Part shown: in pieces, positions 5,731-59,306 of the stretch
Numbering within the stretch: the stretch's first letter is position 1
Layout of the letters: every line of letters begins with the position of its first letter
Source: Nitrosopumilaceae archaeon
GTDB taxonomy: Archaea > Thermoproteota > Nitrososphaeria > Nitrososphaerales > Nitrosopumilaceae
DNA: 64,000 nt
Direction: 5' to 3'
NCBI GenBank assembly: GCA_965208905.1
Contig: OZ242365.1
Location: forward strand, 320,001 to 384,000
Translations under genes and position numbers: made by a program
The notes under the pieces: model-generated
Told to the model about the DNA's origin: nothing
Seen by the model: only the letters and a program-made list of their open reading frames with translations
Database searches by the model: none

Positions 5731-5851
5731 GCGTATCAATCTTTGGCGGACTTGATTATATAGTATGCATGCGGCGTTATACAAGTTTCCCAATGTCTCG
5801 CTATTTGAGTCAAGAGTTGTATGTACATGACTGTTTTTGTGTACCAGTATT

Positions 5852-6894
5852 CATCTATTGTGCGGAAATTAGTTCGCCCTAACTTTAGACGGTCAACCAA
5901 AGAATATTTTAGTCTATATAGATCACACAAACCCATGAGGGTCAATCTAACACAGAAGCAGATCAATTATATCATTCGACAATGCAGGAAAGGTAGTAGT
6001 ACATCACACATTGCTACAGAGATAAAGATTAGCCAGAGACGCGTACAACAACTCTGGTCAATGTATCGTGTAACGGGCAAGATTCCTACACTACAAATGC
6101 CAGGCAAGCTCAGGACTCTTCCTACCGAGGAACAAACCAACGTTGTACTGGCAGCACATCGTGTAATGCCAGCAGGTGTCGCAAGGATCACCAAGTACCT
6201 AAATCACAAGGGCATACAAATAAGTGAAAAAATGGTATACACAGTCATGAAAGAAAACAATATGGTCATTCCATCTGCAGCAAAATCGCGCAGGCGTAAA
6301 TGGATACGCTATGAGCGCAGATACTCTAATGCGATGTGGCATACGAACTGGCATACGATGAAAGATCCACGTTTTCAAGGCTACCAATTAATCACATATC
6401 TTGATGATGCGTCAAGTGCGTGGTTGGGGCCATGATATTCAAGGATGCCACATCCGAAAACGCGGTAATGGTCCTGCAAAACAACATTGCTGAGTTTGGA
6501 ACCCCGCCACCATACTCTCCGACAACGGATCGTGCTTTGTGGGTGTGAGAAGAAAGATTCCTACAAAATCATGGACCCACACTATATTTGAGACAGAGCT
6601 GCTTGATCGGGGTATTGAGTTGATTAACACCCGCCCTATCACCCACAAACAAATGGCAAGCTTGAACGGTTCCACCGCACCTTGGAAGAAGAACTATATC
6701 ATTTTGGCAGCCTAGCGGAGTTTGTCGCATACTACAACGAGGTGCGACTGCACTGGTCTTTAGACATAAACAATGGTGAGACCCCGCTACAGGCATTCCA
6801 CAACAAAAAAGTGCCAGATGATGTCAGGAAGACTGACTCAAAATGGATGGAGATGGACACCAATGACTAGGCGAAATAATTTCGACATAATACA
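5852..6894 (+). mobile_element. IS481-family insertion sequence, copy 2 (decayed)
   Basis: Left end CATCTATTGTGCGGAAATTAGTTCGCCC (TG changed to CA relative to copy 1). Right end GGCGAAATAATTTCGACATAATACA forms an imperfect IR. Confidence 0.85.
5935..6870 (+). pseudogene. IS481 transposase pseudogene
   Basis: First catalytic Asp changed (WHTNWH vs WHTDWH in copy 1). Frameshift near 6418 and another near 6650. C-terminal YYNEVRLHWSL...TP motif lies in a different frame. Confidence 0.85.
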
Positions 6895-8268: not shown

Positions 8269-9387
8269 TTATGTTTGTTTTAACTGTCCCATATTATCTA
8301 AAATGTCGTGGATGTTATTAGGTCCAAGTTTTATATTGATATTATATTGCTTTATTTTATATTGTTTCATATCTGGAGGTATTTTTAATAATTTATACTG
8401 TCTGGATTCTGCATTAAAAGGTAGGTTCAATCTCTCGGATATAGCAACCATCTGTTCATAGTCAGGCAATGCCAGTATCGGGTTTAGTTGGGCATCGTAT
8501 ATTCGATGGAGTAATTTATCTACATATAAGCCTGGAAAAATGATTCTAGATATAGGTAATGTTATGTGTGATATGTTGTGATCTTTTGCGATATTAATGG
8601 CTAGTTCGGTGGCAAGTATCACCATATTTAAAAATCCTTGACCTCCTGATGATACTTTATGTATGGTTAATTGTATTTTTTTGTGTATTAAGTATGGAAG
8701 TATTTTATTGATTATCTTTGCCAGATTTGTCAAATCACTCTCCTTTCTGTATAATGCAAGAATTTTGGTATTGTAACCCATCCGTATGGTCTCCAAACAT
8801 GCCATGGCAGACATTTCATCAAATATGCACGATACCGCCTTGCCCTGCACCCCCATTGGCAAGCCTCCAAAGCACTTGTCTTCAAATATGGATATGTAAG
8901 CATTACTCTGTGTCATGTATACATATAGTAGTTTATCATGTCGGTCTTGTGTACCAGGTCGTACATTTTGTGATGACTTTTCTTCTATTATGGATGAAGT
9001 TATTGCCATCTCGGCATCTTTTGGTAGAAATCCTCTAGAGTATCCTTCTACCTGCACATAAAATGTCTCGTTTCCCAATAATAGATTTCCACCTACTTCA
9101 GTGGCGACCTCTACAATGTCGTTGTAATCATTCTTTATCTGTCTGGCTATGAGCACTTTTTCTATGCCGTATAGCCGCTCAATGGCCGATGACGCAAAGA
9201 CCGGATCATGAGCTTCGACCAGTATAAGGTGCTCATCTCTACATATTGAGGTGTATGGTTCGTCTTCAATCTTTAGGACGTTTTTTATGCATCGTATTAA
9301 CGTGCGTATATACTTTTTAGCGTGTAGTGATGTAAATACAACCACAAACGATTTTGTTGCCATCGTGTACATGACTACACCCCCCAC
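8269..9387 (-). CDS. ThiI-like THUMP-domain protein (true start probably 9363)
   Basis: THUMP-like N-terminus and FGGLPMG motif; PP-loop degenerate. Confidence 0.65.
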   Translation of the reverse strand: MGGVVMYTMATKSFVVVFTSLHAKKYIRTLIRCIKNVLKIEDEPYTSICRDEHLILVEAHDPVFASSAIERLYGIEKVLIARQIKNDYNDIVEVATEVGGNLLLGNETFYVQVEGYSRGFLPKDAEMAITSSIIEEKSSQNVRPGTQDRHDKLLYVYMTQSNAYISIFEDKCFGGLPMGVQGKAVSCIFDEMSAMACLETIRMGYNTKILALYRKESDLTNLAKIINKILPYLIHKKIQLTIHKVSSGGQGFLNMVILATELAINIAKDHNISHITLPISRIIFPGLYVDKLLHRIYDAQLNPILALPDYEQMVAISERLNLPFNAESRQYKLLKIPPDMKQYKIKQYNINIKLGPNNIHDILDNMGQLKQT

Positions 9388-10981
9388 ATAATTTCTTTTT
9401 GGAGTCGTGTCTATGATATGAACTATGCCTATAAGTAGCGGGGTTCCTCCCGCAAAGTCGGGTGATTACACCCCCCGCCATGCGGGATAGCCTGTCAGCC
9501 CAGTTGCTCCAGCAACCCTGTATGAGTGGTGTGGGATCGAGGATTACATCCACACCACGACGGACTTCGCCCAGACTGGCCGAAACCTTACGACCATATC
9601 GGGATACGGCGCTTGTTCGCCGTATGTTCTCCACTGCGTTGACGTCGCGATCTACGCCAACCGTATGGCAGCGGGTGCAGTCTTTTTTATGATAAGCTCC
9701 AGTTAGTGGGGTTCTACATGCAGCACATAGCTTGGATGTGTTGTGTGGACGCATATGTAATGCCTCTACTCCCAAAAATTGGGACTTTTCATAAATTAAA
9801 TTCGATGCTTTTCGCATCATGGCAGAATGTAACCTGCGACGCATATTATGGCCAAACTTCCCATTCTTCTGCCAACCATACGATATATGGGTTAAATCCT
9901 CCAACATCACCAAGCACCCGGATTGTGCGGCCCACTGTGCTATACATAACGCTATCACATTCAGCACATGTTCGTGGTGGCGCATGGCTTTGGCCACCCT
10001 GCGCTTTTTAGCATTCTTCCTTGATTTTGTGTGGTTATGTGGTATGCTCAATATGCATCTGCTCATCTGCTTCTTTATCTCGGCGGCCCTCTTGTGTTTG
10101 CCCTCCCTCTTGAGTTTATTGTATCTGCGTTTGAGTTTGCTGTGTAACTTGTGACCACCATGTGTGACTTGTTGCTTTTCTCTGCGCTCCTCCTCTTTCT
10201 TGTGTACAACACACCTTCCGGTACGTGCCGCATATGCGATATTATCATGTGTACGGGTATACGTATTGTTTACATCCTCAGTCTTTGCCCCCTCAATGGC
10301 CTGTATCGTGTATGATAGATCAAACTGTACCATTGTATCTTTATCACCTACGGTGATGTTCTTTTCATTAATATCCACGCCAATTACATCCTTTGGTGTA
10401 CCGCCCACACAGCCCACATCCGTAAGTAGTTCGATAATCTCTGACTTGCCGTGTGGGTGGGATTTTTCAACCTTGGGCACTTTGTTGTAATATGTAATGG
10501 TATATGTGGTTGGCGTGATCCACAACTCTCCCAACTCATTTTGCCCTATTTTACGTACCACATCTGAAGAGACGGGAATTGCTATCATATGTGGGTGTTT
10601 TGATGAGCCAACATTTGCAATAGCCATATATCCACCCGCTATCGGATTCAGCCTCCAATCTTGGTTTTTCAACTTTACAACCGGATTACGAAATATAGGT
10701 TCAGACACCTTCGTGCCCTGCGCAGCCTTTGTATTGTACGTTTTATGGGCGGCAACCCCGTCCCGTATGGCGGTCTGCGTTATGGACGAATATACTTTGG
10801 GGTCAGGGCCGCGCATTATATGATATATTAATGCGTTAACACCATAGGTATTCTTCCCCGTGTTATCTGCTATAATGTACGCCACTTCTGCCACCTTCCT
10901 GACATGTTCAAACACATGTCGCATGCCCAAATTTTTTGTGTATGGACGTGTTACTGCCCTGCTATTTTTGACTAGAGCCAT
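9317..10981 (-). CDS. tnpB: Large TnpB-like RNA-guided endonuclease (about 554 aa)
   Basis: RuvC IGVDINEKN / VMLEDLT / DRDVNAVENI, Zn finger CAAC...CTRC, TATA TTAAATAC about 22 bp upstream. ORF reads through the right TIR. Confidence 0.85.
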   Translation of the reverse strand: MALVKNSRAVTRPYTKNLGMRHVFEHVRKVAEVAYIIADNTGKNTYGVNALIYHIMRGPDPKVYSSITQTAIRDGVAAHKTYNTKAAQGTKVSEPIFRNPVVKLKNQDWRLNPIAGGYMAIANVGSSKHPHMIAIPVSSDVVRKIGQNELGELWITPTTYTITYYNKVPKVEKSHPHGKSEIIELLTDVGCVGGTPKDVIGVDINEKNITVGDKDTMVQFDLSYTIQAIEGAKTEDVNNTYTRTHDNIAYAARTGRCVVHKKEEERREKQQVTHGGHKLHSKLKRRYNKLKREGKHKRAAEIKKQMSRCILSIPHNHTKSRKNAKKRRVAKAMRHHEHVLNVIALCIAQWAAQSGCLVMLEDLTHISYGWQKNGKFGHNMRRRLHSAMMRKASNLIYEKSQFLGVEALHMRPHNTSKLCAACRTPLTGAYHKKDCTRCHTVGVDRDVNAVENIRRTSAVSRYGRKVSASLGEVRRGVDVILDPTPLIQGCWSNWADRLSRMAGGVITRLCGRNPATYRHSSYHRHDSKKKLCGGCSHVHDGNKIVCGCIYITTR

Positions 10982-19643: not shown

Positions 19644-21109
19644 GGGAATTATATACAAAAGTACACAACCCCAATTCTGAGAGTTAATGCCTGAACCACG
19701 GATCGCGTCCATACAACTCCCCTTAAATACCAGCATACCGTATTATATATTATGATACGAATAGTTAAGGTACCGCTACGGAGAGATGTGCGGTTCGCGG
19801 AGTGGGCGCACCGCACGAATCATGCGTCAAGATATGTGTACAACCGCGCCGTATCAGAGTATTTGTTTGGCGGCGAATACATGGAGAGGGTGGTAGTGGA
19901 CATCCTGCAGCCCTTTAAACTACCGGGCAAGCTGGATTTTACATCAGGTATGCTGGACGATGACTACCATACATATGATTTTGGGCCGTCAAAGAGGGCA
20001 TTAAAGTACGGCATGTTCAAGCAGCTTACGGAGTGGCGCGCTGAACATGCATGGGTATCTGACTTGCCTATGGTGTTTGGCAGGGGCGCCATACAGGATG
20101 CCTCCGTCGCATGTAGACGAGTTGTAGATGACAACTCCGGCCACGCGCCATACCGCCGCAAAGATGGCCGCATCATACTTAGTTCCGTTACACCGCCTGT
20201 ACGGAAAGATAGCCATACGGTACATATCCCCGGATATGGTATTGTAGAGACCGCCAATCCCATCAATGTATTATGGGACATGCGGTCATTCAAGATAGTT
20301 GATGTTACCAAACGGGTGGACAAGCATACCGTACAATCAGACCACATGTTTGAGCTGCATATTGCCATATATGAACCGATGGAACCGCACCGTACTACGG
20401 GTACAATACGGGGTGTCGATGTGGGAGGCAAGCACCTCGCCGTCACGGTAGATACGGACGGCAACGTTACAATACACAACACCCGCCATAGAGCAATCCT
20501 GCGGGAGATTGACGCTCTCAAGAGTTTGCGCGACCGCAAGACACGGCATGGCCGGAAGTGGCATATATTGAATGACCAAATAAAGCGGCTATACAGGAAG
20601 GCCAACAACATAGCTGCGAACACCATAAATCAGACGATTGTACAGATAACCAATGGTGTGGACGCAGTCGTGGTCGAATCGCTCTCCGTAAAGGATATGA
20701 CCACCCATGGCGGGAATTACAAACGCGCCATGAACCGTTCAATGCGGGAGAACCATGTTGGGGAGTTCCTGCGCAAGCTTGCGCAGTGGTGTGATATACA
20801 CAACATACCGCTGTTGGGGGCATCGGCCAAATATACGAGCCAGACGTGCCATGTGTGTGGGACGGTGGATGCCGAGTCGCGTATATCACGCGACAAATTC
20901 ATTTGCACTAATTGTACCAGGGTATTCCACGCGGATGTCAATGCCGCCTGGAATATTCTGTATAGGGCGGCGGGGAAGATCGTCCTAAGACGGCCAGGGC
21001 ACAAGGAGGACTACAAGCCAACACCTTCTATGCTCCACTGTATACAGAAAAGTCGTCAGAAAAGGCATGAGTGTACAGCCGAGGCTGTGTACTTTTGTAT
21101 ATAATTCCC
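19644..21109 (+). mobile_element. TnpB element B: 24-bp perfect TIR and 8-bp TSD
   Basis: TIR GGGAATTATATACAAAAGTACACA at 19644-19667 and its inverse at 21086-21109. TSD TTTCAAGA at 19636-19643 and 21110-21117. Confidence 0.93.
19752..21104 (+). CDS. tnpB: TnpB-like RNA-guided endonuclease (450 aa)
   Basis: SRYVYNRA, GVDVGGKHL / VVESLSV / HADVNAAWNI, CHVC...CTNC. Stop codon lies inside the right TIR. Confidence 0.92.
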   Translation: MIRIVKVPLRRDVRFAEWAHRTNHASRYVYNRAVSEYLFGGEYMERVVVDILQPFKLPGKLDFTSGMLDDDYHTYDFGPSKRALKYGMFKQLTEWRAEHAWVSDLPMVFGRGAIQDASVACRRVVDDNSGHAPYRRKDGRIILSSVTPPVRKDSHTVHIPGYGIVETANPINVLWDMRSFKIVDVTKRVDKHTVQSDHMFELHIAIYEPMEPHRTTGTIRGVDVGGKHLAVTVDTDGNVTIHNTRHRAILREIDALKSLRDRKTRHGRKWHILNDQIKRLYRKANNIAANTINQTIVQITNGVDAVVVESLSVKDMTTHGGNYKRAMNRSMRENHVGEFLRKLAQWCDIHNIPLLGASAKYTSQTCHVCGTVDAESRISRDKFICTNCTRVFHADVNAAWNILYRAAGKIVLRRPGHKEDYKPTPSMLHCIQKSRQKRHECTAEAVYFCI

Positions 21110-32057: not shown

Positions 32058-33477
32058 GGGAATTATATACCTGGGTAGACAAGGCTAGTTCTGGAGGGTA
32101 CATGTTTATAAAGTATTATGATGTATAAAACTACATGTATCGATCTTATGGCTTCCGCGTAAACCTGACGCGCTCTCAGGCGCGTCACATATCCAAAATA
32201 CGGGACTCACAGCGGTTCGTGTACAACTGGGCCGTGGAGCGGCTGCTTACTAACCCCACACTCACTACATATGACCTCTCCAGAGAGTTCACCAAGGTGA
32301 GGCGTTCCGTATCGTGGCTGCAAACAGTGGAGCGCATATACCAAAATACGGCCATCCATCAGGCCCGCACTGCTGCGGATGTCTCGAACAAATACGGCAA
32401 CGGCGAGCTGAGTTTCCGCGCCAGAAAGCGCGATAATAAAAAGGCAGTATCATGTGATGTACAGCCGCGATTTGTGGACAACAGGCACGCGTCATTGCCG
32501 GGCCTTGGTGTTGTTGAGTTGCCTGAGGAGCAGCCATATCAATTTCCACACAACTGGCTGTATGGCTCAAGGTCTTTCCATTTGGTGCAGGTTACACCAA
32601 AGTCGTGGGGGCACGTCAAGTCATGTGACCATATCTATCGGCTGCACATAACATATGACGTACCAGTACCCGAACGGCGCGCCAAGACCGGTGTTGTTGC
32701 CGGCATAGACAGGGGGATAACAAATCCAACGGTTGTCTGTAAGACAGACCACAACACTTCGTGTATAATATCGTATGACACGGCAACCGCATTCCGCACG
32801 AACCGTACATGGAATGATGGTGTGCGCCGTACCATATCACACCACAACAAGCATTCTCATACAACACACAAGATGAAACGCAAACGAGAAAAGTACAATC
32901 GTGGTAATGCGAATGACCGCGAGTATGCGGAGTGGCTTCTAGCCAAGAAGATATGCGAGGGCGTGGATGTAATATATGTCGAACAGCTCAACCTTGAGGC
33001 CATGAGCAGGCGCGGTGGTAGGCACAAGAAAGGTCTGAACAGGGGAATGAGGTTTATTCGGCATTATGCAATATTGCGAAAGATCCGCACCATCGCAGAG
33101 CGGCTGGGCATCCGTGTAGTAGAGGTAAGTCCAAAGCACACAAGCCAGGAGTGCAGTGTGTGCGGCTACACAAACAAGGAGAACCGAGACGGGGAGATGT
33201 TCAAGTGTCTCAAATGTGACCACGTGGCAAACGCCGACGGCAATGCGTCGGTGAATATGATTCAACGGGGGACCGGTATGAAGGTTCCCGCGGGGGAAGG
33301 AATGGCCCTCGAAAGGCGTGAAATGGGCCGGACCCGGAAGCCACCTGTTTGTGCAGTTCCGGACGCCAGACGGCGGCGTGAGAATCAAGCGTGCAATCGA
33401 CCCAAAACATCAAGCGTCATGAAGCACCTGGGAATGTACGCGTATGTTACGCGTGCATACCCAGGTATATAATTCCC
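32058..33477 (+). mobile_element. TnpB element C: 20-bp perfect TIR and 8-bp TSD (7/8)
   Basis: TIR GGGAATTATATACCTGGGTA at 32058-32077 and its inverse at 33458-33477. Flanks TTGTTTAT (32050-32057) and TTGTTCAT (33478-33485). Confidence 0.9.
32135..33472 (+). CDS. tnpB: TnpB-like RNA-guided endonuclease (445 aa)
   Basis: QRFVYNWA, AGIDRGIT / IYVEQLN / NADGNASVNM, CSVC...CLKC. Stop codon lies in the right TIR. Confidence 0.92.
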   Translation: MYRSYGFRVNLTRSQARHISKIRDSQRFVYNWAVERLLTNPTLTTYDLSREFTKVRRSVSWLQTVERIYQNTAIHQARTAADVSNKYGNGELSFRARKRDNKKAVSCDVQPRFVDNRHASLPGLGVVELPEEQPYQFPHNWLYGSRSFHLVQVTPKSWGHVKSCDHIYRLHITYDVPVPERRAKTGVVAGIDRGITNPTVVCKTDHNTSCIISYDTATAFRTNRTWNDGVRRTISHHNKHSHTTHKMKRKREKYNRGNANDREYAEWLLAKKICEGVDVIYVEQLNLEAMSRRGGRHKKGLNRGMRFIRHYAILRKIRTIAERLGIRVVEVSPKHTSQECSVCGYTNKENRDGEMFKCLKCDHVANADGNASVNMIQRGTGMKVPAGEGMALERREMGRTRKPPVCAVPDARRRRENQACNRPKTSSVMKHLGMYAYVTRAYPGI

Positions 33478-55985: not shown

Positions 55986-56486
55986 ATGAGTCGGCCTGGA
56001 AATCTATGGAGAAGCATACATGGACGTGTCACACGCCGACCCACCAACTTCTCTTGGGTCTTACCAGACATATTGGCGGGATCAGGGTTTCCCACCTCAG
56101 AGAATGAGTTTGAGTGGTTGTTAAGTCAGGGAGTAGAATGTGTGGTTACAATGACCGAGGAACCACTACCAAAATCATGGACTAATAATGTACAATACAA
56201 ACACACTCCCACGCCAGACATGACGGCTCCCACGCCAGAAGAGATAGATGAGACTGTAGATTTTATACATCAGAATATAATAGCAAAGAGGCCGGTCATG
56301 GTGCACTGCGCAGCGGGTCTGGGACGGGCGGGAACCATTCTAGCATGCTATCTGATAAAATACAAGGATTATGATGCGCAGCAGGCCATCGACACCATAC
56401 GAAGAGAGAGGCACGGCTCCATACAGTCAGAGGTACAGGAGATTGCCATCTCTATGTATAAAAAACACACACTTCAGGACACTTGA
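55986..56486 (+). CDS. Dual-specificity protein phosphatase
   Basis: VHCAAGLGRAG. Confidence 0.92.
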   Translation: MSRPGNLWRSIHGRVTRRPTNFSWVLPDILAGSGFPTSENEFEWLLSQGVECVVTMTEEPLPKSWTNNVQYKHTPTPDMTAPTPEEIDETVDFIHQNIIAKRPVMVHCAAGLGRAGTILACYLIKYKDYDAQQAIDTIRRERHGSIQSEVQEIAISMYKKHTLQDT

Positions 56487-56614
56487 GATTGTAGTCTTCC
56501 ATCCTGTATACTGATTATAACTCGCCGGCCCTCTTGAAACTGCAATATTATCTGGTCGTTCTCCTCTTGTACGCCCACTAGTTCGGTCATCTTGAGTTTT
56601 TCATAGTCAGCCAT
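56474..56614 (-). CDS. Small hypothetical protein (46 aa; below ORF-track cutoff)
   Basis: MADYEKLKMTELVGVQEENDQIILQFQEGRRVIISIQDGRLQSQVS; pattern similar to the upstream neighbour. Confidence 0.5.
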   Translation of the reverse strand: MADYEKLKMTELVGVQEENDQIILQFQEGRRVIISIQDGRLQSQVS

Positions 56615-56619
56615 CTCAA

Positions 56620-56772
56620 TCACTCGGGTATCGATATGGTCTGTATCTTGCCATCTTCAGCCTTTACAAACAAAAACCGATTATCTTTAAAGATGAAGGT
56701 GATTCCTCCTTCCTTGTCTGGTTCTTCCACTTCTAGGAGAGGTTGTCCTAGTAGACCATCATACTTTGCCAT
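56620..56772 (-). CDS. Small hypothetical protein (50 aa; below ORF-track cutoff)
   Basis: MAKYDGLLGQPLLEVEEPDKEGGITFIFKDNRFLFVKAEDGKIQTISIPE; TATA-like tataaaaa upstream. Confidence 0.6.
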   Translation of the reverse strand: MAKYDGLLGQPLLEVEEPDKEGGITFIFKDNRFLFVKAEDGKIQTISIPE

Positions 56773-56971
56773 ACAATCTACACTTGAGCGACTTTTTTAT
56801 ATCTTAGGTTCCTCTGATCAATATACAGTGTGCCACCTGCACTATCCAAAAGGGGTATTAGTCATTATGATGATACGGCATTATTCCGGCTGTCCTCCCC
56901 GTATTGTACACTCCAATATCTGAGCACTACGCATGCGTTTTATCTCTAGTGTATAACTACATCTTAGTCTA

Positions 56972-58456
56972 TGAGCTGGTAACTAAACGTCGCGTAGGTT
57001 ACCGGCCTGCCGTGCGGCAGATGTTGGTGGCGAACCACCATCCAGAGGAGTTACATTGAGACGTTCTTTGTTGGCTGGACTTTGACGCCCGACCTTTGGA
57101 CATCCTGTACCGGCCATCACGTCGTTAACACTTGGAGGAGGCATGCAAGTGCCAAGATGTATCTTCCCTCTCAAGACCATTCCGGCCTTGTCTTGCAGCG
57201 CGTAAACGGCTTGCGCACGCTTAGACCACTGCACTGTGTAAAAAGTGAATAATATGTTGAATGCCGCGTTGACATCCGCGTGCATCAGAACACCGCAATC
57301 ATAACACCGAAACTGGCTGCTTTTGCGCCATGTGTTTGTGTTGCCGCATACACAGCACTGTTGTGAGGTGCCTTTCTGGTCTATCTCGACATACTCTGTA
57401 TTATACTTGAGTGATTGTTGCGCAAGCAAGTTCCGCGCCTCACCACACTTGCTTTGTCGCATCAATTTATTCTTGGCTTTCTGACCCTTCCCTTTTGTGG
57501 TCATGGTTCTGAGGTTCATGCCCTCCATGATGATTTTATCGCACTGCAGCATCAGTTTTTTGGAGAACTTGCGCAGATCATCCATCTGTTTATTTCCCAT
57601 CTTCTTGTAGACCGATTGCAGCTGCGCATGCAAGTTGCGCCACTTGTGAGAATGAAGCTTGCACCGCGCCATCTTCTTTTGTGTTCGCGCGATGTTCCGC
57701 ATGGTATCTTTTTCACGAAGTGTCAGCATCGCAATACCCCCATCCGACTTTCCAACTATAAGCGTGTGCTTGCCGCCCATGTCAATACCCGCGTGTATGC
57801 CGGTACATACACGGTCCGGGACGTGCTCACGAATAGTTACGTGCAACTCGAACTGCCTCTCTTTATCATCGTGATTTGTAACATCCACAATCTTGTAGGA
57901 CTGTGAGGATTTTGGAAGCGTGTCCTTTTGCAGTTTGAAGGGTTTGTCGCACTTTGGGAAGTATACAGTATTACCCTTGGACTTTTTGCCCAATGGAACC
58001 GCGCTGTATAGTGGATATATCTTACGCCCGTACTTTACATGTGCACAACCCTCCATCTTATAGCCTTCTTGTATTGCGCCACGAACCCAAGCTTGGGGGA
58101 TTGTCTGGCATATGGTGGCTACTTTATTGGTATCAAATACCGACAGGCCGGCCCGACGCGCCTCAATTCCGGCATTGAGCCACATGTGCGATTCAGAATA
58201 CATGGAGTCAAAGTATTGTGTTAGTTTGGTTGATGTCTTTAAACGGTACTGCAGAGTCCTAATGATGTACTTTTCATCTTTGTACTTCATATATTACACA
58301 TGATTCGGTGATATTTAAGCGGTGTTCCTATCCAAAGGTTGTACAAAGTCCAGCCAACAAAGAACGTCTCAATGTAACTCCTCTGAATGGCGGTTTGCCG
58401 CCAACATCTGCCATACGGCAGGCCGGTAACCTACGCGACGTTTAGTTACCAGCCCA
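56972..58456 (-). mobile_element. TnpB element D: 113-bp TIR and 8-bp TSD
   Basis: IR 56972-57084 vs 58344-58456 (7 mismatches, no indels), ends TGRGCTGGTAAC. TSD TTAGTCTA at 56964-56971 and 58457-58464. Confidence 0.93.
56983..58290 (-). CDS. tnpB: TnpB-like RNA-guided endonuclease (435 aa)
   Basis: GIDMGGKH / IIMEGMN / HADVNAAFNI, CCVC...CYDC. C-terminus and stop codon lie inside the TIR. Confidence 0.9.
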   Translation of the reverse strand: MKYKDEKYIIRTLQYRLKTSTKLTQYFDSMYSESHMWLNAGIEARRAGLSVFDTNKVATICQTIPQAWVRGAIQEGYKMEGCAHVKYGRKIYPLYSAVPLGKKSKGNTVYFPKCDKPFKLQKDTLPKSSQSYKIVDVTNHDDKERQFELHVTIREHVPDRVCTGIHAGIDMGGKHTLIVGKSDGGIAMLTLREKDTMRNIARTQKKMARCKLHSHKWRNLHAQLQSVYKKMGNKQMDDLRKFSKKLMLQCDKIIMEGMNLRTMTTKGKGQKAKNKLMRQSKCGEARNLLAQQSLKYNTEYVEIDQKGTSQQCCVCGNTNTWRKSSQFRCYDCGVLMHADVNAAFNILFTFYTVQWSKRAQAVYALQDKAGMVLRGKIHLGTCMPPPSVNDVMAGTGCPKVGRQSPANKERLNVTPLDGGSPPTSAARQAGNLRDV

Positions 58457-58476
58457 TTAGTCTACCTGTATATCTA
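58344..58476 (+). ncRNA. Putative second (left-end, outward-facing) omega-RNA-like transcript
   Basis: Non-coding inverted copy of the tnpB 3' hairpins with a compensatory change; AT-rich ATATTTAAG at 58311-58319 upstream. Confidence 0.45.
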
Positions 58477-58987
58477 CAGGTAGAATATCACCATGTACAT
58501 CGTTCTTGTCTAAGAAATGATGTTTCTGCCATGACACTTGCACGTTGCCTCTTACTTTGTGTGTACCCTTACCCAGCTCTGATGCTTTGATGGTATAGTC
58601 CTCCTCAAAGTCGAACAGCTCTTGGCGTACATCTTCTTCAGTCAGTTTTATGATGGGCGTAAAATTCTTTGCAACCTGCACCCAGACCCGCTTCTCCTTC
58701 ATGGGATTTACTAGTTTTGGGTTTCTGGTCCAAAATATTGCTGCCTTCTTGTATGATATGATGGGTTTGCCCAGTTTTTGGCGCCTCAACCCTGTAGAGG
58801 TTATATGAACCTCATACTTCATCTTGACGGATACATCGTTGGCATTGTACGCCTCAGTCCAGTTCTGTTCGGTGAATGACTCCCGGTTCTTGCCTTGTAC
58901 AGAAAACTTTACCAGCAAATGTATTGTGTCATCAAGTGAATATGACGACTTTGATGGTATAACCTCTATCTTATCAATTCGATCCAT
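58457..58987 (-). CDS. Conserved hypothetical protein
   Basis: 176 aa; stop codon is within the TSD of element D. Confidence 0.7.
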   Translation of the reverse strand: MDRIDKIEVIPSKSSYSLDDTIHLLVKFSVQGKNRESFTEQNWTEAYNANDVSVKMKYEVHITSTGLRRQKLGKPIISYKKAAIFWTRNPKLVNPMKEKRVWVQVAKNFTPIIKLTEEDVRQELFDFEEDYTIKASELGKGTHKVRGNVQVSWQKHHFLDKNDVHGDILPVDIQVD

Positions 58988-59030
58988 GCTCGGTTGATTT
59001 ATATCCGTAATATGTTCTTTTTTTAATTAT

Positions 59031-59306
59031 ATGAAGGTCGAAGCTATCAGCTCCACCGCCAACGAGGTAGGATTATCATTTACAGATGTGGATATCGCGA
59101 CACTATACATAATACAACACGAACTCCAAAAGAACCCAGATGTGGAGTTTGTGGGAGTTATTCTCAAACATCCCCTCACAAACGAGTGCTGGATGCGGGT
59201 GACCTCAAAATCAGACCCCAAACAAAACATACGCGATGCAGTAGATGCAGCCATCATCTCCGCCAACGAAATGAAAGATATAATGGCCATGGATGTTTTG
59301 GTTTGA
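59031..59306 (+). CDS. rpoL: RNA polymerase subunit RpoL/Rpo11
   Basis: V.FVGV..KHPL motif, next to TFS. Confidence 0.8.
   Translation: MKVEAISSTANEVGLSFTDVDIATLYIIQHELQKNPDVEFVGVILKHPLTNECWMRVTSKSDPKQNIRDAVDAAIISANEMKDIMAMDVLV

Follow-up and report, generated by a model that had tools for sequence, protein, structure and literature searches.

A TnpB-only archaeal transposon with an inverted second copy of its putative guide-RNA core

Element D, a TnpB-only transposon of 1,485 bp in the genome of a Nitrosopumilaceae archaeon, carries the 3´ core of a putative omega-RNA at both of its ends: on the left as part of a full module that overlaps the 3´ end of tnpB, and on the right as an inverted, non-coding copy of about 129 nt. 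The second scaffold is best explained as a by-product of the rebuilding of the transposon ends rather than as a selected second guide-RNA gene, a reading to which we give a probability of about 0.55. The window analysed is a stretch of 64,000 nucleotides (positions 320,001 to 384,000 of contig OZ242365.1), and all coordinates refer to it. The features are as follows:

56964-56971, no strand: left copy of the 8-bp target-site duplication, TTAGTCTA, read from the sequence
56972-58456, minus strand: element D, a non-autonomous TnpB-carrying transposon with DDE-type ends, from the duplication and the empty-site contig
56972-57100 (ungapped 56972-57084), minus strand: left inverted-repeat arm, 113 nt ungapped and 129 nt gapped, an omega-RNA-like 3´ core
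about 56972-57200 (~225 nt), minus strand: putative constrained RNA module overlapping the tnpB 3´ end, from synonymous-codon identity and fold
56983-58290, minus strand: tnpB, 435 aa, apparently intact
58311-58318, no strand: AT-rich TATA-like box, ATATTTAA (TTAAATAT when read on the minus strand), with the tnpB ATG 20 nt downstream
58328-58456 (ungapped 58344-58456), plus strand: right inverted-repeat arm, a non-coding inverted second copy of the putative omega-RNA 3´ core
58457-58464, no strand: right copy of the 8-bp target-site duplication, TTAGTCTA, read from the sequence

The boundaries of element D were set by the duplication together with an empty-site contig. The direct repeat around the element is perfect over 8 bp, and an 18,850-nt contig from the public run X6 joins 56963 to 58457 with a single copy of the 8-mer, whose eight letters are assignable to either side of the joint. 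The bases missing from this contig amount to 1,493, that is, the 1,485 of the element plus 8. Since the contig represents the empty site, element D is a recent insertion. The element was also recovered by a screen of the genome for perfect duplications accompanied by terminal inverted repeats. In run X5, from a strain diverged by about 3%, contigs span the occupied right junction of D and link repeat-arm sequence with the region upstream of tnpB, and there are contigs in which the flank before 56970, at the left end, is unlike that of the window. Run X5 also contains two "opposite strand" joints, from 57080 or 57087 to 58353, with one contig each, which are probably due to the aligner switching between the two arms. 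Because the direct repeat flanks the element on both sides, the two guides that the initial annotation had proposed start with the same duplicated 8-mer, reverse-complemented in one of them.

The tnpB gene reads through the entire left arm, and 11 nt lie between its stop codon and the left end of the element. The protein scores above the cut-offs of the family signatures, both in Pfam (OrfB_IS605, 35.1 bits, cut-off 30.5; Cas12f1-like_TNB, 56.1, cut-off 26.3) and in NCBIfam (guided_TnpB, 113.7, cut-off 100). Residues D170 (GIDMGG), E256 (IIMEGMN) and D339 (HADVNAA), as well as C312, C315, C329 and C332, are invariant in all eight aligned paralogs. We take the three acidic motifs to be RuvC-I, II and III and the four cysteines to be a zinc finger (CxxC..CxxC), both intact in D. 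The AT-rich box of the initial annotation is present at 58311-58318 and is conserved, with its surroundings, in the sister element c1947. It is presumably the tnpB promoter. About 26 nt separate it from the inner part of the right arm, and it may act bidirectionally.

A structured RNA is predicted at the 3´ end of the gene. Across 13 intact ORFs, synonymous-codon identity is about 0.5 before alignment column ~371 and 0.70-0.82 from there onward, which places the constraint in the last ~225 nt (~70 codons) of tnpB. Three hairpins covary across 18 sequences (D and its relatives), with 93.9% of cells paired (slid controls, 28-46%) and changes on both sides in 8 of 14 pairs. In the minimum-energy fold of the module, a central domain is closed by the long-range helix AGAGGG/UCCUCU. 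The predicted RNA reaches the element boundary, the arrangement by which TnpB/OMEGA systems are recognised. Searching the whole window against Rfam at gathering thresholds gave a single match, a tRNA elsewhere in the window; between 56900 and 58520 there was a chance-level P26 match alone (22.8 bits; gathering score 36), and thus no Rfam family for the RNA. Judged from the alignments, the left arm is a structured and constrained RNA in the omega-RNA position, where the initial annotation had placed the left repeat, and the covariance analysis that it had suggested supports the three hairpins.

The repeat search returned two arms of 114 nt, 56971-57084 and 58344-58457, which are 94% complementary and separated by 1,259 nt. 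Each includes, as its outermost base, one letter of the target duplication, which leaves 113 nt inside the element. Pairwise alignment over these 113 nt, without gaps, reveals exactly seven mismatches: two fall in the CTGCC-GCAC/ATAC-GGCAG loop and three in the TGGTGG/TGGCGG hairpin, and the others are a terminal A/G and a single-stranded C/T. In this hairpin the T/C and A/G differences are the two partners of one base pair (TGGTGG..CCACCA vs TGGCGG..CCGCCA), and the remaining one falls in the loop (TTCG/TTTG). The terminal stem GGTAAC..GTTACC is the same in both arms. The initial annotation had described a 113-bp repeat with seven differences, among them a compensatory pair and three loop changes, and an identical terminal stem, and the alignment bears out this description. 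When an indel of 3-4 nt is allowed, the arms grow on their inner side to about 129 and 126 nt, with 117 identities in 130 aligned columns. A blastn search with the left end of D against the whole 2.2-Mb genome recovered the right arm with E = 1.1e-44, which excludes a chance match.

The left arm contains hairpins H1, H2 and H3 and the terminal hairpin GGUAAC..GUUACC, and also codes for the C-terminal tail of TnpB. The right arm contains a variant of H1, H2, H3 and the terminal hairpin, with the 5´ ~95 nt of the module absent. Its fold (-34.5 kcal/mol, z = -1.96) keeps all four 3´ hairpins, and by alignment and fold no helix is broken by the differences between the arms. Homology to the left end of the sister c1691 begins at 58328, and the junction is abrupt, with homology to the sister promoter region ending at 58325. 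Apart from the RNA hairpins, no internal repeats of a binding motif were found in the inner 100 nt of the arm. A 45-aa plus-strand ORF (58308-58445) was rejected as a gene because it mirrors the TnpB C-terminal tail via the repeat.

The genome, a single contig of 2.2 Mb that is 99.6% complete, contains 67 tnpB ORFs of at least 180 aa, belonging to six families. No match to the Y1 transposase (PF01797) was found in it at E<=0.01, whereas the same search matches 6 of 14 control genomes, and the serine recombinase (PF00239) also gave no match in the genome. Perfect 8-bp duplications and terminal inverted repeats (at least 10 of 12 positions matching) enclose 23 of the 67 ORFs. The terminus GGGAATTATATAC of families tnpB2 and tnpB5 is also that of four IS1595-family elements, exactly over 13 nt, and 13 of 15 end pairs of this type have perfect duplications. 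A second, weaker IS1595-like ORF family (3 copies) was dropped as a candidate partner, as it has no recognisable inverted ends. The termini of the D family, [TG]G[AG][AG]CTG[TG], are similar to the 24-nt repeats of 3.4-4.0-kb elements with a DDE_Tnp_IS240+SWIM transposase; over the first 12 nt, 11 positions agree with the IS6-like element in the sister c768 and 7 in D. This protein is present in 12 copies, 66-82% identical, and the boundaries of 4 of the 12 were resolved by a motif-plus-duplication screen. In this one genome, common termini are found in autonomous copies, in MITEs of 589-648 bp and in derivatives that carry TnpB.

Target duplications of 8 bp are typical of the IS6 and IS1595 families in ISfinder descriptions, and the duplication of D fits the IS6 family. 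From these likenesses, D is probably mobilised in trans by the IS6-like DDE/SWIM transposase encoded elsewhere in the genome. Against this partner stand the terminal agreement of only 7-11 of 12 positions and a score for NCBIfam transpos_IS6 of 85.7 bits, under the cut-off of 125. A search for an autonomous element with the exact terminus of D (20-23-nt termini, <=4 mismatches, ten solo ends inspected) found no transposase gene between such ends. D-type termini occur elsewhere in TnpB elements, in solo ends and in one MITE-like element of 715 bp. With inverted repeats around tnpB and a TnpB 3´ end less than 250 bp from the end of the element, D resembles the DDE-associated TnpBs. It does not belong with IS200/IS605 (IS1341 group), given its inverted repeat of 113-129 nt, its 8-bp duplication and a genome without Y1, nor with IS607, given its inverted repeats and duplication and a genome without PF00239 matches.

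The flanks of TnpB-element insertions vary. In seven insertions of the D family, a small sample, the dinucleotide preceding the duplication, read along the tnpB-sense strand, has G first (6/7) and G or T second (7/7), and two relatives in another genome (G083) do not fit this motif. The position where a second guide would need the motif reads TC in D. One TnpB family shows a strand-specific motif beside the duplication, with G at -1 in 11 of 11 cases.

In repeat length, D is an outlier. Its 130 aligned columns are the longest value among 33 elements measured, the others having 18-80: the 26 other TnpB elements reach 18-54 and the six autonomous elements 23-80. For the sister c402 the value is about 75. 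None of the 26 elements, and none of the five other TnpB families, has a scaffold at both ends, and the junction of promoter and inverted scaffold was absent from all nine other genomes of the genus. The right ends of the sisters c394 and c402 keep the terminal module and 'AGATGTTGG' and have lost half of hairpin H3. The proposal of two outward scaffolds in the initial annotation holds as far as orientation and structure go, since a plus-strand transcript of the right arm would be a sense module running into the right flank with its four hairpins kept; the architecture, however, is unconserved, and in c394 and c402 H3 is lost.

All seven variant states of the right arm are present in the left ends of sister elements, including the "compensatory" pair. 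The copy c740 has five of the seven, with the C-G pair among them, and c1691 has the inner H1 variant GGTTGTA, so that the right arm is a mosaic: H1 like c1691, the H2 and H3 states like c740, and a D-type terminal module. Because these states are shared with sister left ends, they do not show selection on the right copy, and the interpretation of the compensatory pair as selection on both copies, as put forward in the initial annotation, is not upheld. The pattern can instead be inherited from left ends that are presumably functional. About 43% of the arm positions are paired, and the chance that seven random substitutions would all spare the stems is, by our own estimate, about 0.02-0.05. 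No near-identical donor for the right arm was found among the extant copies in the genome, the best matches being the left arm of D (94%), the fragment f902 (91%) and c1691 (84%); the right arm may therefore be old yet undecayed. The fragment f902 is 96% identical to the left end of D over 154 nt and further in resembles c1691 and c768, a patchwork that makes recombination among paralogs evident.

In the favoured explanation, D is a recently inserted, non-autonomous element with DDE-type movement (inverted ends, 8-bp duplication), unlike IS200/IS605 elements. The canonical guide-RNA module at the tnpB 3´ end would form its left end, and the last ~20-25 nt of the module would double as the terminus recognised by the transposase. 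Being such a terminus, the module end would have to recur, inverted, at the other end. The repeat usually takes up ~20-55 nt in the family but ~129 nt in D, in which the ordinary right end would have been replaced by an inverted copy of the left-end 3´ core, with either a sister element or an older left end of the D type as its source. On the inner side of the right arm, ~100 nt would then be a structural by-product that has not yet decayed. We infer this origin of the right arm, and its lack of function, from the comparison of sequences. The explanation is favoured by the hallmarks of DDE-type insertion, the lack of Y1 or serine TnpA genes and the termini like those of autonomous elements. 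It is also favoured by the exceptional repeat length of D, the decay of right copies in c394 and c402, the seven shared variants and the count of 0/9 genomes, and both DDE-associated and trans-mobilised solo TnpBs are already described in the text of PMC10691335. Against it are the intact state of the right arm, with no helix broken (the 0.02-0.05 estimate), and the lack of a near-identical donor. In ISDra2, moreover, the 3´ 116 nt of the omega-RNA scaffold are described as sufficient for cleavage (PMC10097598), so that a copy of 116-129 nt could be a complete functional core. The TATA-like box about 26 nt away, possibly bidirectional, points in the same direction, as does the fact that D transposed in its present form and has an occupied right junction in the X5 strain.

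The same evidence bears on a two-guide TnpB, in which the right arm would be transcribed outward from the AT-rich box or another promoter and bound by TnpB, with a second guide made of the 8-mer and the right flank. The empty site would then be cuttable from either strand, with a doubled chance of a suitable TAM. Elements that make duplications land at varied sites where a TAM is not guaranteed, which would provide a rationale for a second guide, and the sense orientation, the four intact 3´ hairpins, arm differences that are all in loops, in single strands or compensated, the ISDra2 precedent (PMC10097598) and the mobility of D in this form are in agreement with it. Nevertheless, we regard this alternative as unlikely. 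D is a singleton in the comparisons with 26 elements, nine genomes and five families; the partial right copies of c394 and c402 are without an intact H3; and the right-arm variants pre-exist in sister left ends, with no sign of selection in place. The missing 5´ ~95 nt of the module include one strand of the long-range helix. Transcription starts about 26 nt from a TATA box, and a start at this distance would land in the 5´ strand of H1. In the seven insertions, a small sample, the G then G/T motif is on the tnpB-sense side, against TC at the second-guide position. The full claim that D is a natural two-guide TnpB transposon, DDE-mobilised, with an outward omega-RNA core at each end, both flanks programming TnpB and the empty or a sister site open to cutting on either strand, is decidedly improbable; in a bolder version, the guides derived from the two junctions may allow the nuclease to act at both borders of the element that encodes it.

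The long repeat might instead be selected as DNA, providing extra subterminal transposase sites, assisting end synapsis or forming a snap-back or cruciform that aids mobilisation or repair. The autonomous IS6-like repeats of 50-59 nt and the one IS1595 element of about 80 columns indicate that subterminal sequence may matter, and D-type ends are mobile, as seen from the X6 empty site and the X5 contigs with a different left flank before 56970. However, sisters with repeats of 18-27 nt also have perfect duplications and several copies, and the long repeat is therefore unneeded; the absence of a repeated binding motif other than the RNA hairpins in the inner 100 nt, and of comparative conservation in the nine other genus genomes, makes such a role very doubtful. 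A further alternative concerns origin and fits a by-product as well as a functional outcome: an inverted sister element, in or beside the right end of D, would have been deleted to its last ~129 nt, after which the two 'left' termini were paired. The mosaic of the right arm, unlike D's own left arm, the abrupt junction at 58325/58328 and the paralog recombination seen in f902 are what such a nested or adjacent element would leave. Yet it requires two or three separate events and has no surviving donor copy in the genome, and the same data would also result if an older D-type left end had been copied by fold-back and the left arm had changed later, so that we consider the nested-element origin quite improbable.

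Element D can be compared with several known systems. DDE-associated TnpBs form the branches DDE-1 to DDE-6 (Altae-Tran et al. 2023, PMC10691335), and partners named in a review are ISL2, IS630 and IS1031 (PMC13565253). As in D, TnpB lies within inverted terminal repeats, its 3´ end less than 250 bp from the transposon end. The ends of solo elements resemble those of transposase-carrying elements, which implies trans mobilisation (PMC10691335). The D family shows a likeness of this kind at 7-11 of 12 positions. In contrast, the partners suggested here, IS6-like (DDE_Tnp_IS240+SWIM) and IS1595-family, are not named in the main texts of PMC10691335 and PMC13565253, the host is a Nitrosopumilaceae archaeon, and what D repeats is a stretch of ~129 nt from the guide-RNA module rather than a short repeat alone. 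IS200/IS605 elements of the IS1341 group, ISDra2 among the relatives, share the TnpB protein family with D. In IS200/IS605 there are no terminal inverted repeats and no target duplication, and a Y1 TnpA is needed (PMC13565253; PMC3119063); subterminal hairpins lie on one strand, as the text of PMC13565253 has it. D differs in its inverted repeats and duplication, in a genome without a Y1 gene and in an RNA that matches no Rfam family. In ISDra2, as is predicted for D, the guide-RNA module shares sequence with the 3´ end of tnpB and adjoins the flank, and the RNA core encodes a C-terminal tail, which in ISDra2 is described as disordered and dispensable (PMC10097598). Fanzor, a eukaryotic homologue of TnpB, is an RNA-guided nuclease found in DDE-type transposons with inverted ends and target duplications, and as in D the duplicated target sequence sits at the scaffold/guide boundary (according to the text of PMC13565253); D, however, is prokaryotic and its protein is an ordinary short TnpB. 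No Fanzor element with a scaffold duplicated at both ends is reported in the literature searched, as far as those texts go. Finally, the IS6 and IS1595 families and their non-autonomous, MITE-like derivatives have 8-bp target duplications, as does D, and short terminal inverted repeats; the cargo of D is distinct in being a nuclease gene with its putative guide RNA.

Cas12 descends from TnpB, whose biology is known almost wholly from IS200/IS605 and IS607 elements, with scarless excision beside a fixed TAM. Here, in a complete archaeal genome that lacks TnpA but has 67 tnpB ORFs, TnpB elements behave as cargo of DDE-type transposons, and for one of them, element D, a polymorphic empty site is confirmed. 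This raises the question of what benefit a TAM-dependent homing nuclease brings to an element that inserts at varied sites, and the G at -1 in 11 of 11 insertions of one family is a hint at the answer. D offers a test case, in that its single nuclease gene has the full guide-RNA module at one end and, at the other, only a copy of the 3´ core. If the second guide is not made, D would still illustrate how inverted ends grow by copying a guide-RNA module.

Element D is a TnpB-only transposon whose arms form a long inverted repeat. As the initial annotation described, pairwise alignment returns 113 nt with seven mismatches inside the element. The arms reported by repeat search are 114 nt long and 94% complementary, and the repeat extends inward to 129/126 nt if a 3–4-nt indel is allowed (130 columns, 117 identical). 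When the left end was used as a probe against the whole 2.2-Mb host genome, the right arm matched with E = 1.1e-44. Two of the mismatches are the partners of one base pair in the TGGYGG..CCRCCA hairpin (T-A vs C-G). The others fall in the loop of that hairpin (one), in the CTGCC..GGCAG hairpin loop (two), in a single-stranded stretch (one) and at the terminus (one).

Features of element D (window coordinates)
56964–56971 and 58457–58464: perfect 8-bp direct repeat TTAGTCTA
56971–57084: left arm, at the tnpB 3´ end
56983–58290, minus strand: tnpB, 435 aa, between the arms
58311–58318: AT-rich box
58344–58457: right arm, an inverted non-coding copy

Contigs from four public sequencing runs were compared with positions 56300–59100. 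Run X6 comes from another study and has another organism code; one of its contigs, 18,850 nt long, joins 56963 straight to 58457. It omits 1,493 bases, with eight letters placeable on either side, and comparison of its flanks with the window shows differences at 6 of 664 nt and 4 of 644 nt. This contig is an empty site with a single copy of the 8-mer, so D spans 56972–58456 (1,485 bp) and was inserted with an 8-bp target duplication. In run X5, whose right flank is about 3% diverged, one contig spans the occupied right junction of D, and contigs also connect repeat-arm sequence with the tnpB upstream region.

The tnpB gene scores above the cut-offs of Pfam OrfB_IS605, Pfam Cas12f1-like_TNB and NCBIfam guided_TnpB, and the acidic triad and four zinc-finger cysteines of its product are invariant in 8/8 paralogs. 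The reading frame traverses the entire left arm and stops 11 nt short of the end of D. The AT-rich box lies 20 nt upstream of the ATG, a distance suggesting that the mRNA may be leaderless.

IS200/IS605 and IS607 elements have neither inverted repeats nor duplications (PMC3119063, PMC13565253), whereas D has both, so its ends are not of either type. Altae-Tran et al. 2023 (PMC10691335) describe six DDE-associated TnpB branches, every one with inverted terminal repeats, as well as solo TnpBs with ends matching transposase-carrying systems; D is of this known kind. The DDE partners named in a 2026 review are ISL2, IS630 and IS1031 (PMC13565253). In literature searches on TnpB with IS1595, DDE, inverted repeats or Thaumarchaeota, no link to IS1595- or IS6-type ends was found; the supplements of PMC10691335, outside this scope, may list some. 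D is a DDE-type TnpB-cargo transposon, and its distinctive trait is that the 3´ core of the guide RNA is present a second time, in inverted orientation.

Besides D, the host genome carries ten near-full-length copies of the D family, which share 73–81% identity at the DNA level, as well as a partial copy of 863 nt and several solo fragments of the left end. Like D, the sisters have inverted ends and are bordered by 8-bp duplications; the two duplicates are identical in c768, c1379 and c2209 and agree at 7/8 positions in c394, c250 and c1947, and no target duplication was found for c402. A profile of eight paralogs detected the family in three of six other sampled genomes of the genus and in none of the 114 genomes that represented 26 further genera of the same taxonomic family. 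The distribution is narrow, with related loci in Nitrosopumilaceae and Cenarchaeum metagenome-assembled genomes, going by record titles.

The solo left-end fragments consist of the guide-RNA module and a tnpB 3´ stub; one is 96% identical to the D left end over 154 nt. They lie, together with a tnpB-less MITE-like element of 715 bp that has D-type termini, at genome positions 902528–902765, 822346–822712, 1136480–1136831, 424610–424713 and 1954622–1955336. Solo ends of three D-family subtypes occur within about 11 kb at 413800–424750 (413801–413828, 421348–421369, 422888–422919 and 424719–424739), a pattern resembling an insertion hotspot or a nest of elements that has decayed.

Six tnpB families, with 67 ORFs of 180 aa or longer, are present in the host genome. 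In 23 cases the ORF lies between terminal inverted repeats that agree at ≥10/12 positions and are bordered by a perfect 8-bp duplication. Neither a Y1 transposase (PF01797) nor a serine recombinase (PF00239) was found in this genome, while the same searches were positive in 6 and 12, respectively, of 14 reference genomes used as controls. Its DDE families comprise two rve types (22 and 16 copies), IS630 (12), IS6-like with SWIM (12) and IS1595 (four, plus weaker fragments). At least three further TnpB elements of other families lie in the window, together with an rve-type transposase ORF; the tnpB2 and tnpB5 elements have GGGAATTATA termini and 8-bp duplications.

Other mobile elements in the window
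5821–6435: rve-type transposase ORF, member of the 22-copy family
9317–10981, minus strand: tnpB3 ORF
19644–21109 (genome 339644–341109): tnpB2 element
32058–33477: tnpB5 element

Terminal sequences suggest that IS1595-family and IS6-like elements may be the autonomous partners of the TnpB elements. The four IS1595-family elements (2,131–2,837 bp; NCBIfam transpos_IS1595, 176 bits) have termini GGGAATTATA.. and perfect 8-bp duplications. The first 13 nt of this terminus are common to families tnpB2 and tnpB5, and among 15 end pairs of this type 13 have perfect duplications and two match at 7/8. When the whole genome was screened for the D-family terminus [TG]G[AG][AG]CTG[TG] with a duplication matching at 7/8 or better, the hits included D-family elements, MITEs of 589–648 bp and one 3,688-bp element (genome 157876–161563; repeat 24/24, duplication 8/8). 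The latter encodes a DDE_Tnp_IS240+SWIM transposase, for which the top NCBIfam match is IS6 at 85.7 bits, under the cut-off of 125. Three further copies of this transposase lie inside 23–24/24 repeats that start with the D-family motif. The terminus of the IS6-like element is matched at 11/12 positions by that of c768 and at 7/12 by that of D.

Cargo of 1–2.5 kb is present in the autonomous IS6-like and IS1595 elements (genome 157876–161563, 1130912–1134320, 1337692–1341644, 1851328–1854929, 675271–677401, 1043578–1046414 and 1770047–1772736). An N-terminal ..LDPPF/LDPPY.. motif, reminiscent of DNA methyltransferases, occurs in several cargo ORFs. The IS6-like copies at 1337692–1341644 and 1851328–1854929 share a stretch of 2,236 nt, flank included, at 100% identity, and their flanking 8-mers are swapped (GTCCGTTG/AAAATAAC vs AAAATAAC/GTCCGTTG), suggesting a possible rearrangement or segmental duplication between them.

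Comparative evidence argues for a guide-RNA module in the left arm. Across 13 intact ORFs (eight from the host genome, five from the relative G083), synonymous-site codon identity is about 0.45–0.6 over most of tnpB and 0.70–0.82 from about column 371 to the end, which indicates nucleotide-level constraint over the last ~225 nt. In an alignment of 18 left ends (13 host, four G083, one from the relative G018), standard pairs account for 93.9% of the cells of three hairpins (H1–H3), vs 28–46% when the 3´ partners are slid by 1–3 columns; the hairpins were picked by eye from these same sequences, a choice that favours them over the slid versions. Both sides have changed in 8/14 pairs, and the covariation score is 0.392 (slid controls ≤0.118; shuffles ≤0.210, 0/500 reaching 0.392). 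Four distinct H3 sequences all pair (CUGCC/GGCAG, CUGUU/AACAG, CUGUG/CACAG, CACUC/GAGUG), which would be hard to explain without a real hairpin. The terminal hairpin (GGUAAC..GUUACC in D) varies by subfamily and cannot be aligned. In the minimum-energy fold of the 234-nt module, a long-range helix AGAGGG/UCCUCU is predicted to close the central domain; it is invariant and so gives no covariation. No Rfam family matched the module.

In its predicted fold, the right arm retains H1 (as a GGUUGUA variant also found in c1691), H2, H3 and the terminal hairpin. Absent from it are the ~95 nt at the 5´ end of the constrained module, with the AGAGGG strand among them. D is homologous to the sister promoter regions up to 58325 and to left ends from 58328; thus, in D the inverted 3´ core adjoins the tnpB promoter region, where the sisters have an ordinary right end of 57–118 nt. 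At 7/7 variable positions the D left arm has the state of the solo fragment f902, and all seven right-arm states occur in left ends of other copies, five of them in c740.

Left ends of other copies that carry the right-arm states
GAATGG: c740, c1691, c2094 and four relatives
H2 C-G pair, 5´ C: c740, c1691, c2094, c1379, c1405 and five relatives
H2 C-G pair, 3´ G: c740 and G018 only
H2 loop T: c402, c1947, c250, c2209
H3 loop AT: A in c740, T in nine copies
Terminal C: c250, c2209

The compensatory pair therefore represents variation among functional left ends. It shows that the hairpin matters there, and is no proof of selection on the right copy since its making.

We consider the right copy to be an undecayed by-product of end replacement, with a probability of about 0.55. 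The initial annotation proposed that both arms are transcribed outward, each flank supplying one guide. A working second guide is unlikely, although no difference between the arms disrupts a helix and no near-identical donor of the right arm is left in the host genome. Also in its favour, the 5´ 115 nt of ISDra2 omega-RNA are dispensable and a 116-nt core is enough, according to PMC10097598, which also describes as disordered the C-terminal tail that TnpB has encoded over the core. The AT-rich box could in principle fire rightwards too. With the usual archaeal TATA-to-start spacing, a rightward transcript would start at about 58340, within the 5´ strand of H1. The stems are not respected in homologous right ends: those of c402 and c394, which align with their own left ends over ~75 and ~54 nt, have lost half of H3 and kept the adjacent 'AGATGTTGG'.

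Insertion sites bear on the second guide as well. In empty sites reconstructed in tnpB-sense orientation, seven D-family insertions have G at -2 in 6/7 and G or T at -1 in 7/7; two G083 relatives with different termini fall outside this pattern. The canonical guide site of D (..ACAGG) agrees with it, whereas ..ACATC, the site of the proposed second guide, does not, a weak argument given the small sample. Among 33 elements, the repeat covers 130 aligned columns in D, 18–54 in 26 other TnpB elements and 23–80 in six autonomous ones. The junction of promoter and inverted scaffold is absent from nine other genomes of the genus, where matches cover the scaffold part only, at tnpB 3´ ends. An origin of the right copy as a nested remnant, which would leave its function undecided, is less probable than a second guide, and a role at the DNA level is the least probable of these readings.

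An element with target duplication and varied insertion sites has no built-in TAM. In 11 tnpB2 insertions with perfect duplications, the 5´ side has G at -1 in 11/11 (P ~9e-8 by base composition), T at -3 in 8/11 and A at -4 in 8/11, while the 3´ mirror has C at +1 in 3/11; the autonomous IS1595 elements, with the same termini, have G at -1 in two of four insertions. The position of this strand-specific motif is that expected of a TAM if the guide begins with the duplicated 8-mer. The tnpB2 motif looks like a TAM adjoining the target duplication, and which insertions persist may accordingly be shaped by TnpB-dependent retention or by target choice.
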